In this document: in pieces, positions 24,775 through 29,591 of the stretch
How the letters are laid out: each line of letters begins with the position of its first letter
How positions within the stretch are numbered: the first letter of the stretch is position 1
NCBI GenBank assembly: GCA_000165345.1
Contig: CM000435.1
Location: forward strand, 768,001-832,000
DNA length: 64,000 nt
Reading direction: 5' to 3'
Notes under the pieces: generated by a model
Databases searched by the model: none
The model's input: only the letters and a program-made list of their open reading frames with translations
Told to the model about the DNA's origin: nothing
Position numbers and translations under genes: made by a program

Positions 24775-25581
24775 TTAAATTGATTCTTCACTTGATTCTT
24801 CCAGGAAATGGCTTGTCATCTGCTTTTTTCTTGACTCTGTCGTACAGATCGTCCTTTTCTGTTGAATCTTTATAGATGAGATAGTGTTCAGTTCGTCTAT
24901 TCTTTTCCTTGACTCAACCTCATGTATGTTGATCTCCTCTAATGTCGTTGGCATCATGGCTCTGGAACGAGAGTCTCTAAGTAGTTTACTTTTTTCAATT
25001 GTTCTAGGTCTGACTGTTAACTTGTTGTCCACTCTTTCTATGCAGACCTTATACTTTTTGTCGAAGGTATCATCAAAAATAAATGCTTTATCGGGTCCAA
25101 TCACGCAATCATATACTAATTCGTCATTGATAAATAGCGAGTAAGTGCCGTCACTCCAAGAAACTAGTTTGGAGTTAGAGTAGGAATCTCCTTCACCTTT
25201 AATACCGCCTTTGATACATAAACCACTTTCAGTTGTATTATCAACATTTGTTTTATTTACAACTTTAAGACGTTCCGGAAGTTTTAATGTTAATAAAACT
25301 TGATCTTTGTTGTCAATCCCGAAATAATTTGTAGGCAGTTGTAACTTTAAATTTTTAATATCTTCAAAGTTGTTAATTCTATCGCAGTTAATATTATCAT
25401 TTATACTAGTATGAGTTTTTGCATCGTCTTTTTCAATCATAAAACAATGTCCATCATTATGAACCTGGTCAGGAGTTGAGTCACTCTCGCCAAAAAGATC
25501 AGAATCACTTTCATCTATGTTTGAATCATGTATGGCTTCACTTGGAGAATCTTTATGATTATCAAAATGGCCAAGCATCAT
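24775..25581 (-). CDS. LEO1: LEO1 (Paf1 complex subunit)
   Basis: The track start is TTG (25620); the first ATG ATG is at 25581. The Leo1 core (SNSKLVSWSDGTYSLFINDELVYDCVIGPDKAFIFDD…KVCIERVDNKLTVRPRT) matches human LEO1 ([28 protein letters not shown]…FIRQG…KTKLTFRPHS). Confidence 0.65.
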   Translation of the reverse strand: MMLGHFDNHKDSPSEAIHDSNIDESDSDLFGESDSTPDQVHNDGHCFMIEKDDAKTHTSINDNINCDRINNFEDIKNLKLQLPTNYFGIDNKDQVLLTLKLPERLKVVNKTNVDNTTESGLCIKGGIKGEGDSYSNSKLVSWSDGTYSLFINDELVYDCVIGPDKAFIFDDTFDKKYKVCIERVDNKLTVRPRTIEKSKLLRDSRSRAMMPTTLEEINIHEVESRKRIDELNTISSIKIQQKRTICTTESRKKQMTSHFLEESSEESI

Positions 25582-25623
25582 AAATTCAATAAATGCCAGA
25601 TTTTGCCTATGTGCGCGCAAAAA

Positions 25624-27994
25624 CTAAGGCTTATTTTTATAAAAATTTCTAAGCTTCAAAATCACATTAGTCTCAAAATTCCAATCAATTAATTGTTCAT
25701 TAGGAATATTCTCAGCTATCCATTTTGGTAGCATTTGCTTTACTTCAGAAGAATTATATCGATGATCAACCAACAAAATAGATGAATAATCATTTCTATG
25801 TCTTATTGCGCGACCAATACATTGGTTGACTGTTTTCATACACAATACTTTTCTATAAATGTTTTCATACCTATTATAATCGCAACTACCTCTGTTAAAG
25901 TACCTCTCCTTACTAAAAAGCATTTCAGTCTTTTGTGGAAATGGGAGCGAAACTATTATAAGGCATCTACAAAGTTCATCTGAAAAATTTACTCCCTCCG
26001 AAAGAGTTCCATTTAAAACAGCAAAAAGTATTGCTCCGTATTCCTTGTTATTTACAATATGGTCTCTATATGACATAAGTAATTCCTTTCCACTATTTGA
26101 ATCCTGTTTTTTTTCCTTGAAAATTTTTTTGTATTTTAATATTGTTTGGTAAAAGTCCTTAGAACTTTTATCCGAAACAAGGAACTTGAAAAAGACATCG
26201 AGGAATAAGTGGGATGTGAAGAAAACGCATACCCCGTTAGGTATTTCTGAGGAAAGTACTGATAATAGCTCGCAAAGATTTAATAGCTGTTTTATGTCGG
26301 TTCGAAATTCGTATCTTAGATCAATTACACTATTATCAATAAACTTTGGAATGATCAAACACATTAAGTTATTATTTGAAATATGGTGACTCGCAGAGAA
26401 CTTTACAATATTCATAGGCTCTAACGGTAATAATAATGGACTAAACTCTGTCAAAGGTTCCAATGTTCCTCCAACAAGCATAGTAGATTTTGTGTTGGCA
26501 AATACATCATTAAAACTTGTTTGCACATTAATAGGAACAACTGTAATAGTAGCCTGTTTGCCATCTGAATGGTTAAAGCTTGTTTCAATAATAACTTTGT
26601 CAAATTCTTTATCAGAACGAATTAAAGCAACAATAAAATCCTTTAACAAAAACAAAGAGTTTGAATGTGAAATTATTTCCTCAAACTTTCTGAATTTAAT
26701 TGGGAAATCTCTTCCAAATTTAATAATAATATTTTTAATTTTACTACACAATTCATTTTCAACAATAAAATTAATAATTTTGTTCAAATTAAATGTATTG
26801 ATTTGGTAAAAATTTAAGAATTCTAGTGGTCCAAGAAAGATTTGATTACTTTTCACTTCGTTTTCACCATATTTGCGCTTTTTTGAACTGATTATTTTAC
26901 TTGTAGATGAATGTATACACTTGACTAGCCTAGCTAGCTGTTTAAAAGTTGCAACGAAATTATCTCCAGGAACAGAATTATCTAATGAAATTAGTTTTTC
27001 AAATGAATAACTCAGTATTTGGCAAGAAAGTAAAGTAAGGCTGACTCTATTATTTGATTCTAATGCGTTAACTAAATTATGCGCTTCATCAATAAAGCAA
27101 AGGGTTTTTTTCTTGTCAAGAAAGATTCCAAATGATTCTCGAGTAGTTTTGTTGAAAATAATACTGTAAGGTGCAAGAATTATGTCTGAATACTTACTTG
27201 CTTCTTTAGCTGCGTAATACGGACATGCCTATAAACAATATTTAGTATGAAAATAATTTAAATAAACTTACAATTAAATTTTTACCTTCTTTACGTAATT
27301 CTTCAATGTTCATTGGCTCAATTAAACACTTTTTCGCAAGTTCCATGTAGTTTTCTTTATAGAGGCATTTATTTTCTTTTTTTTCTTCGCTGGAATACAT
27401 TTTACAAACTTCATTAATAAGATGGTTTGGATAGTTTTTTACTTCATTATTTAAACAAAGATGTGACCTGCTTGCAAGCGATACAATTGAATAAATGTTA
27501 GAAATGTGAGTGTTATCTTTATTTGCCATTTTTATTTTGTTAAACTCCTCAACGAATTGCATTAATTGCGTATGAGTTCTACTAGAGATGATTATCTGAT
27601 AGTAACTAGAAAAAAAATCTAAGTTTTCGCTAGATATTAATTCTTTTACATTTTTTTTTGTCGAAGTTAAAATATCTTTGTTGATAGATTTTAAAAAATT
27701 AATTTTTTCATTAATGTATTGCTCGCATGAATTTTCTCTACTTTTCCTGATTGCATTAGCGACCCATAAAGGCATTGGCTTGCTTTCTCGGGCAAAAGAT
27801 ACTGGGCCATAAATTTGTTGGCTTATCCAACTCAGTGATGAGCATAAAATACTTAAAGTTTTACCTGTGCCCGTTGGAGATTCAAAAATTCCAATTCCAC
27901 CATCTATTTCATATAGCTTCCAAGCAGCTGAACAAAATTCGGATTGTATTTCATATGGTTCATTCGGGAATCCAAATCTTTTTGAATAACACAT
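25624..27994 (-). CDS. DDX11/Chl1-type DEAH-box (Rad3/XPD family) DNA helicase; two exons (27994..27272 and 27228..25624) split by a 43-nt intron at 27229..27271
   Basis: N-terminus FPNEPYEIQ…GIGIFESPTGTGKTLSIL is the Rad3-family motif I. Exon 1 ends …ELRKEGKNLI|GTAAGT. Exon 2 begins ACPYYAAKEA… and continues LCFIDEAHNLVNA (the DEAH box). The C-terminal helicase domain carries QCIGRAIRHRNDYSSILLVD. Confidence 0.75.
27229..27271 (-). other. 43-nt spliceosomal intron of the DDX11-like helicase gene
   Basis: Donor GTAAGT and acceptor TTGTTTATAG. The splice joins …GKNLI to ACPYY…, recreating the conserved CPYY motif of Rad3-family helicases. Confidence 0.7.
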
Positions 27995-29217
27995 TGTAAA
28001 TACTTCTGTACCACTTTATCTTAATGAGTGTGGTCAACTAGTATTTAAGTAGGCCATTTCCAGTACTTTAGTAACAAATTTCTGTATTATGAGTTATTCT
28101 CCTAAGTGAAAATAAATTAAAATGATTTAAAAATATATAAAACACCCATAATATTTGTAGTAATAAATTATTTATGTTAAAAAATATACTGTTAGTAAAA
28201 CTTATTTTAAATTTACCCGTTTTTCTCATGCAATGCCTGAGTAAACTTTTTAATAAGCTAAGCAGCGCTTAAATATGAAATATTAGAATTACCTAATTAT
28301 TTATCAATATTTTAATTAAAGATATTCACCACTTTTTGGTTTGGTCTTATATAATTACTTTTATTTCAAATTGGTTGAAAAAATTTGTCAAGCCAAAAAA
28401 AAATTGTTAATGAACCGTAAATCATCTGAAAGAAATCATTTTAAATTATTTGCATTTATAAGAGCTTAATATATTAATCAATTCATCATTAAGTTTTGTT
28501 TCTTAGTAACATGCTTTAATTTATATTTTTCAGAATATTAAAGGATAAAAAATGGTTTTAATTAAAATTAAATAGACCTAGCTGTTGTATAAATCATTTG
28601 GATTGAACAACATTAAAATGGTTTTTGTTAATTCCTAATCAAAAGAATAACTTTTATTAGTAATTTTCATTGAATAGATTGATACTATATTTTTTAAATT
28701 ATAGTGTATCTGAAAATAATATTGCATTAATTTCAAATTCTCTGAGTTTGCGATGAGAAACAATAGTAGTACCCGAATAAGTTCTCTTTTTTTTCTTAAT
28801 TAAAATATTTCAATTTAAACATTAATTTTTAATAACTTGTTATAAATATTTTTAAAGATTACAACATTTTGTGATTTTCAGAGTTAAAAAACTCATCCCA
28901 GATAAATATGACGAAATAGCTTGGGGACTTGACTTGAAAAAAATTAATATCTTTAAGATGTTCTAAATCTAACTCCCAACAAAATCCCAATTAGAACAAA
29001 TTTGAAATGGAATTTCTAATCAATTAACACCAAGATCAATTAGAATGTGTTACTATAATTGAATATTTTAGGATCAACAGAATCGGACAATAAATTTAAA
29101 AAAAAAAATGAAGTTACTCTATTTTTGTATTACTCAACTAATTTCTAAGATATATGAATTGTTATCTAACGAGTGCTAATAAAGCATTTTGAATACAATT
29201 ATTAAAACACAAATATT

Positions 29218-29591
29218 TTATGGGCTACAATATGGGTTCTCTATTACTTCACTTCCGTCACTTGGACAAATCATTAAAACCTAGAAAAAATTTTATTGAA
29301 AAAAAAATTAAATTCAAACTTACAGAAGCACCCCTTATTACCAATAGACCCAACCTCCGTTTTTGATCTGGGCACGAAAGAAATTCATCTTTATCTATTC
29401 GAACTAATAACTGATTAAACAAATAATATTAGTAACCTACCAAACATATATTCAACTGTTTCATCCAAAACAAGGTTCGTAACCGCATCAAATCCACGTA
29501 ATATTCCAATAACTTCTCTTCCGCCACATAATTTTACTTTTATTTCTTTGTTATTAAACTTGTTCAACCCTAATATTGATTTTGATGACAT
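29218..29591 (-). CDS. LSM7: LSm7 (U6 snRNA-associated Sm-like protein); three exons (29591..29441, 29394..29324, 29280..29218)
   Basis: Exon 1: [50 protein letters not shown] (Sm1 motif). Exon 2: [24 protein letters not shown] (Sm2 motif RxLGLVVxRG). Exon 3: [20 protein letters not shown], matching the human LSm7 C-terminus …SVVLICPQDGMEAIPNPF. Introns are 29395..29440 (GTAGGT…AATAG) and 29281..29323 (GTAAGT…TTCTAG). Only exon 1 appears in the ORF track, fused to nonsense. Confidence 0.75.

Follow-up and report, generated by a model that had tools for sequence, protein, structure and literature searches.

The minus strand at 25624..27994 raises a simple question: are the two open reading frames listed there, 27242..27994 (250 aa) and 25624..26856 (410 aa), the remains of a broken gene or the exons of an intact one, and to which helicase do they belong? 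An earlier note on the window (the whole stretch of 64,000 nucleotides that was analyzed) had read them as collinear parts of one XPD/Rad3-family helicase of the DDX11/Chl1 type, separated by a 43-nt intron. Our analysis indicates that the interval is very probably a single-intron gene of Cryptosporidium parvum that encodes the DDX11/Chl1 orthologue, an SF2 helicase of the XPD family with a 4Fe-4S cluster. The feature described in the earlier note is real and was correctly interpreted; it is also ordinary and already known.

The helicase starts with the ATG at 27994 (minus strand), and without splicing its frame ends at a stop at 27244..27242. Excision of the 43 nucleotides that begin with the donor GTAAGT from 27271 and end with the acceptor TTTATAG at 27229 joins codon 241 (Ile) to codon 242 (Ala), so that RKEGKNLI is followed directly by ACPYYAAKE. 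The two exons are 723 and 1605 nt long, both divisible by three, and together encode 775 residues with zero internal stops. Directly upstream of exon 2, its frame is shut by a TAG that contains the acceptor AG itself, making this the sole acceptor able to retain the cysteine of ACPYY. The resulting features are as follows.

25624..27994, minus strand: whole helicase gene of C. parvum, ATG to stop including the intron; 775-aa protein, very probably of the DDX11/Chl1 type
27272..27994, minus strand: exon 1, 723 nt, residues 1–241; Q motif (Q17), Walker A, motif Ia and putative Fe-S cysteines 1–3
27229..27271, minus strand: 43-nt phase-0 spliceosomal intron, GTAAGTTTATTTAAATTATTTTCATACTAAATATTGTTTATAG; an intron is found at the same position in four other Cryptosporidium species
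25624..27228, minus strand: exon 2, 1605 nt, residues 242–775 plus the TAG stop (25626..25624); putative Fe-S cysteine 4 (ACPYY), DEAH box, Arch region and HD2
27857..27871, minus strand: Walker A GTGKT, residues 42–46; invariant in 65 DDX11/Chl1 sequences
27455..27457, minus strand: putative Fe-S ligand Cys180 (SRSHLC); invariant alignment column
27404..27406, minus strand: putative Fe-S ligand Cys197; invariant alignment column
27365..27367, minus strand: putative Fe-S ligand Cys210; invariant alignment column
27223..27225, minus strand: putative Fe-S ligand Cys243 (ACPYY), second codon of exon 2; invariant alignment column
27079..27090, minus strand: DEAH box (motif II), residues 288–291; from sequence and alignment
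25798..25824, minus strand: motif VI QCIGRAIRH, residues 710–718; from sequence and alignment
25711..26259, minus strand: Pfam Helicase_C_2 match, residues 565–747; from a profile match

The spliced model of 775 residues put forward in the earlier note, with its intron and all of its coordinates, was borne out by the public records, since the product matches the deposited C. parvum protein at every residue: it is identical to EAZ51588.1 (UniProt A3FPP9), QOY40669.1 (CPATCC_003554), WKS79038.1 and KAL5367666.1. The DNA of the gene is likewise identical to that of the chromosome records CP141124.1 and CM109967.1, which come from independent assemblies of C. parvum, and the window is chromosomal DNA of this species. 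The annotated model (EAZ51588.1/A3FPP9; QOY40669.1) has the same protein and the same exon–intron structure as ours, with no structural difference, but is named only "helicase" or "hypothetical protein", without a DDX11/Chl1 label; the deposited name of EAZ51588.1 is "helicase [Cryptosporidium parvum Iowa II]". The gene model has thus been public for years, and what is added here is only the DDX11/Chl1 label and a remark on a shortened insert in the first helicase domain (HD1).

The Pfam domain DEAD_2 matched residues 137–306 with 118.9 bits (cutoff 21; E = 2.4e-34), crossing the splice junction, as expected if both reading frames belong to one helicase. Helicase_C_2 matched residues 565–747 with 151.7 bits (cutoff 25.3; E = 2.5e-44), and the NCBIfam profile TIGR00604 (rad3) gave 352.7 bits against a cutoff of 246.95. 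These E-values, and the exact occurrence of the 775-aa sequence in public records, put the helicase signal far beyond chance. With all three profiles above their cutoffs, the protein belongs to the XPD family (Rad3/DinG-type) of SF2 Fe-S helicases. FESPTGTGKT, which the earlier note had called the N-terminus, is indeed present and corresponds to Walker A (motif I, residues 37–46), and QCIGRAIRH...LLVD, its C-terminus, corresponds to motif VI (residues 710–729); the wording was loose, as these motifs merely lie near the ends of the protein. The placement of the DEAH codons (27090..27079) was also correct: the frame is open there, and the GTG at 26856 that the ORF caller took as a start lies further downstream. 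In alignments of 13 and 65 sequences, Q17, GTGK45, SRTH (motif Ia), DEAH288–291, SEGxNFSD and QxxGRxxRH were invariant. Four cysteines between motifs Ia and II, C180, C197, C210 and C243, were invariant in the 65 sequences, and are predicted to ligate a 4Fe-4S cluster in the C. parvum protein. An AlphaFold (AF2) model of the spliced protein had a pLDDT of 86 and a pTM of 0.85, with a pLDDT of ≈96 across the junction (residues 231–250). Foldseek aligned this model with the XPD/Rad3 chains of TFIIH structures with E-values from 1e-34 to 1e-29 and TM-scores of 0.67–0.69 when normalized to the query and 0.68–0.77 when normalized to the target. The model thus shows the four-domain fold of the XPD family, consisting of HD1, Fe-S, Arch and HD2.

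An intron with GT–AG ends occupies the same phase-0 site in the orthologues from C. meleagridis (43 nt), C. canis (43 nt), C. xiaoi (44 nt) and C. andersoni (50 nt), the last of which belongs to the gastric clade, distinct from the intestinal species (PMC13125899). These introns were obtained by subtracting the coding length from the annotated gene span, followed by a splice that reproduced each protein. In these relatives, removal of a GTAAG...YAG segment one codon before the ACPYY cysteine was the only way to give the deposited sequence; the donors were GTAAGT or GTAAGC, and the acceptors TAG or CAG. None of the lengths in the five species is a multiple of three, so that retention would shift the frame in every one of them. 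Nucleotide identity between species was similar in the intron and in the flanking exons; since both are similarly diverged and AT-rich, the rate of divergence does not discriminate the intron. The case for it, as read from the sequences, rests on the conserved position, the splice signals and differences in length that are not divisible by three.

In its GT–AG ends, its AT-rich sequence and its length of tens of nucleotides, the intron resembles other short introns of Cryptosporidium. At 43 nt it is below the mean of 99 nt reported for C. parvum in an earlier re-annotation, in which introns were found in ≈10.8% of the genes (PMC4637869). A neighboring LSM-domain gene has introns of 46 and 43 nt, however, so that the size is normal at this locus. 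Baptista et al. 2022 (PMC8744675) stated that the introns of the CpIA (CPATCC) annotation were 100% supported by RNA-seq, a general statement that is not specific to this gene.

We considered the possibility that the break in the frame is a frameshift, due to an assembly error or to decay into a pseudogene, and that the locus encodes truncated fragments only. A prokaryote-style reading does give separate ORFs of 250 and 410 aa, and prokaryote-style gene calls on Logan contigs gave the same two fragments; among the Logan transcripts the 775-aa product was not found, only the unspliced calls of 250 and 410 aa. However, the sequence is identical in independent chromosome-level assemblies, the interruption is bounded by canonical GTAAGT and AG, the same codon boundary is interrupted by 43–50 nt in five species, and the catalytic residues are intact on both sides. 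We regard a frameshift as exceedingly improbable. Alternatively, the frame could be restored by another splice pair, for example the donor at 27271 with an acceptor at 27193 (79 nt), and formally there is ample choice: 139 GT/GC..AG pairs (single introns of 15–400 nt) open the frame. Every pair other than the 43-nt one removes conserved residues, however; the 79-nt option drops ACPYYAAKEASK and with it the invariant Cys243. Of the 139, the 43-nt pair gives the shortest intron, has the consensus donor GTAAGT, is the only one to retain all conserved residues, including RKEGKNLI and ACPYY in alignment with all orthologues, and is the one conserved across species. Use of a different pair is therefore highly improbable, and the 43-nt intron is retained in what follows.

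The remaining alternative concerns the subfamily, namely that the protein is an orthologue of RTEL1, FANCJ or XPD rather than of DDX11/Chl1. Public records give only generic names ("DNA repair helicase (rad3) family", "helicase"), and the best sequence match among solved structures is FANCJ while the best fold matches are XPD. These structural matches reflect the lack of a DDX11 structure in the libraries searched. In a protein search, the top eight of the best 120 matches were Cryptosporidium orthologues or fragments thereof, and each of the other 112 listed, when named, was DDX11/Chl1 or carried a generic name, with scores of 241–330 bits, compared to 142 bits for human FANCJ and ≈120 bits for XPD/Rad3. 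No RTEL1-named protein was present among these best 120 matches. In the reverse direction the raw scores were ambiguous (mammalian DDX11 gave 273 bits against human FANCJ and 247 against the C. parvum protein) as a consequence of the long Cryptosporidium branch, and a neighbor-joining (NJ) tree was therefore built from 491 well-aligned columns. It comprised four sequences from Cryptosporidium, 12 from DDX11/Chl1 proteins of fungi, animals and one oomycete, and fragments of human FANCJ and of human and Chaetomium XPD, taken from PDB alignments; RTEL1, for which the PDB offers no helicase-domain structure, was left out. Cryptosporidium and DDX11/Chl1 were monophyletic relative to FANCJ and XPD in 300 of 300 NJ bootstraps, in a tree without RTEL1. 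Identity over the core columns was 33–40% with DDX11/Chl1, 28.5% with FANCJ and 24% with XPD. Membership of another subfamily is thus quite improbable, and the DDX11/Chl1 type named in the earlier note is, from these comparisons, almost certainly the right assignment, with RTEL1 set aside only by its absence among the best 120 matches.

Chain A of PDB entry 8rev is named "ATP-dependent DNA helicase CHL1", while the title of the entry says XPD. Genuine Chl1/DDX11 proteins scored this chain like XPD (162–181 bits); it was accordingly rejected as a CHL1, being really XPD, and served as an XPD outgroup. The label would mislead subfamily calls that are based on names. A literature search for a Cryptosporidium DDX11/Chl1 returned nothing relevant; the single match to "chl1" was in fact "chl12".

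We also considered whether the intron is an ancient one of DDX11 genes. No intron was present at the same position in the DDX11/Chl1 genes of Mucor, Phytophthora, Caenorhabditis, Podarcis (a lizard) and Montipora (a coral), and an ancient origin was rejected, the position not being common to these five genes from outside Cryptosporidium. As far as sampled, the intron appears specific to the Cryptosporidium lineage, a curiosity for which any consequence would be hypothetical. The Chl1 genes of Mucor fragilis and Phytophthora boehmeriae, two distant organisms, were seen to share two other phase-0 intron positions, the first splitting Walker A between GT and GK, the second following GGTM(E/Q)P. 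Both introns are probably ancient, and Cryptosporidium has neither.

The genes around the helicase match C. parvum records: a PP2C phosphatase, the small LSM gene, the helicase, Leo1 and ribosomal protein L1/L10a. The Leo1-domain gene lies on the same strand at 24775..25581 (minus), with its ATG at 25581, only 42 nt (25582..25623) past the helicase stop, so that the 3' end of the helicase and the 5' end of Leo1 must overlap or abut. At the orthologous locus of Cryptosporidium sp. chipmunk genotype I, the deposited protein has 1039 residues and contains DEAD_2, Helicase_C_2 and Leo1 domains; this domain content suggests an annotation in which the helicase and the Leo1 gene that follows it were merged into one model. 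The LSM-domain gene (29218..29591, minus strand), 1.2 kb upstream of the helicase, appears to contain two mini-introns, of 46 nt (GTAGGT...AATAG) and 43 nt (GTAAGT...TCTAG), and its sequence without both gives the annotated 94-aa product. Between the LSM gene and the helicase are 1223 nt (27995..29217) with no annotated gene and only short ORFs, which is long for a genome with a reported mean intergenic length of ≈550 nt. This segment is 86% identical to that of C. meleagridis, compared to 93–95% for the flanking genes, and Rfam and tRNA scans of the window, this segment included, found nothing. One of the three C. parvum genes that Baptista et al. 2022 (PMC8744675) listed as putatively subject to alternative splicing, CPATCC_0035590, lies some five locus tags away from the helicase (CPATCC_003554) and may fall in the window.

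The gene needs splicing to encode the full helicase. The spliceosome would excise the 43-nt GTAAGT...TAG intron, joining codon 241 to codon 242, which directly precedes the codon of the fourth cysteine. Without this step translation would stop after 250 residues, short of the putative fourth Fe-S ligand and of everything that follows it (DEAH, Arch and HD2), so that a complete Fe-S domain is encoded by the spliced mRNA alone. The spliced product has the full set of catalytic and putative cluster-binding residues. By homology with the family, as described in PMC8109800, the enzyme would be a 5'→3' translocase on single-stranded DNA that carries a 4Fe-4S cluster and whose Arch domain forms a tunnel for the DNA. 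Like yeast Chl1 and human DDX11, it would act at replication forks, in the establishment of sister-chromatid cohesion and the processing of secondary structures. From these relatives we infer both a 5'→3' helicase activity and a role in cohesion in Cryptosporidium.

With the present assignment, an entry that Cryptosporidium databases list simply as "helicase" gains a more precise label, that of a DDX11/Chl1 orthologue. If the assignment is right, the reduced genome of Cryptosporidium has kept a helicase for cohesion and replication stress with its Fe-S domain intact, without the Timeless-binding motif of animals. The exercise also shows that a correct eukaryotic gene model, including a 43-nt intron, is recoverable from raw sequence; apart from such bookkeeping the result matters little.

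DDX11 (ChlR1), the helicase of Warsaw breakage syndrome, and yeast Chl1 share with the C. parvum protein the DEAD_2 and Helicase_C_2 architecture, the Q, I, Ia, II (DEAH), V and VI motifs, the four Fe-S cysteines and an insert between Walker A and motif Ia. The C. parvum protein is shorter, however, with 775 residues compared to ≈830–920 for DDX11/Chl1, and sits on a long branch, with 27–32% identity. The difference is distinct in the HD1 insert, which in DDX11/Chl1 is ≈20 kDa in size (PMC8109800). In C. parvum it has 91 residues (≈10 kDa), about half, compared to a median of 158 (range 101–181) in 59 other DDX11/Chl1 members. Neither the EYE motif nor a DDIL-type Ctf4 box, both as defined in PMC8109800, was recognizable in the C. 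parvum insert. In the columns that in most eukaryotes hold the EYE motif, which binds Timeless/Tof1, C. parvum has KELISSE followed by a gap, where vertebrates have LVLAEYESDE; 38 of the 65 sequences have the tyrosine, but all six from Cryptosporidium lack it. Not every member of the family has the motif, and its absence is a variant feature that does not exclude the protein from DDX11/Chl1. The short insert fits the general reduction of the Cryptosporidium genome, and one may speculate that docking to the replisome differs from that of the usual DDX11. An extended version of this idea, that the protein is a minimal DDX11/Chl1 which, having lost half of the insert and EYE, reaches the replisome by another route or works alone, with the genus-specific mini-intron as an on/off point at which retention would give a dead fragment of 250 aa, seems to us unlikely. 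FANCJ (BRIP1) belongs to the same family and has the same Fe-S domain; apart from DDX11/Chl1, no other member of the family has an HD1 insert (PMC8109800). FANCJ is much larger (a chain of 1271 residues) with a long C-terminal tail, and despite being the best sequence match among solved structures (142 bits) it has 28.5% core identity and falls outside the clade in the tree. XPD/Rad3, the TFIIH subunit, has ≈24% core identity, no HD1 insert and the position of an outgroup in the tree, but it shares with the C. parvum protein the four-domain fold and the match to TIGR00604.
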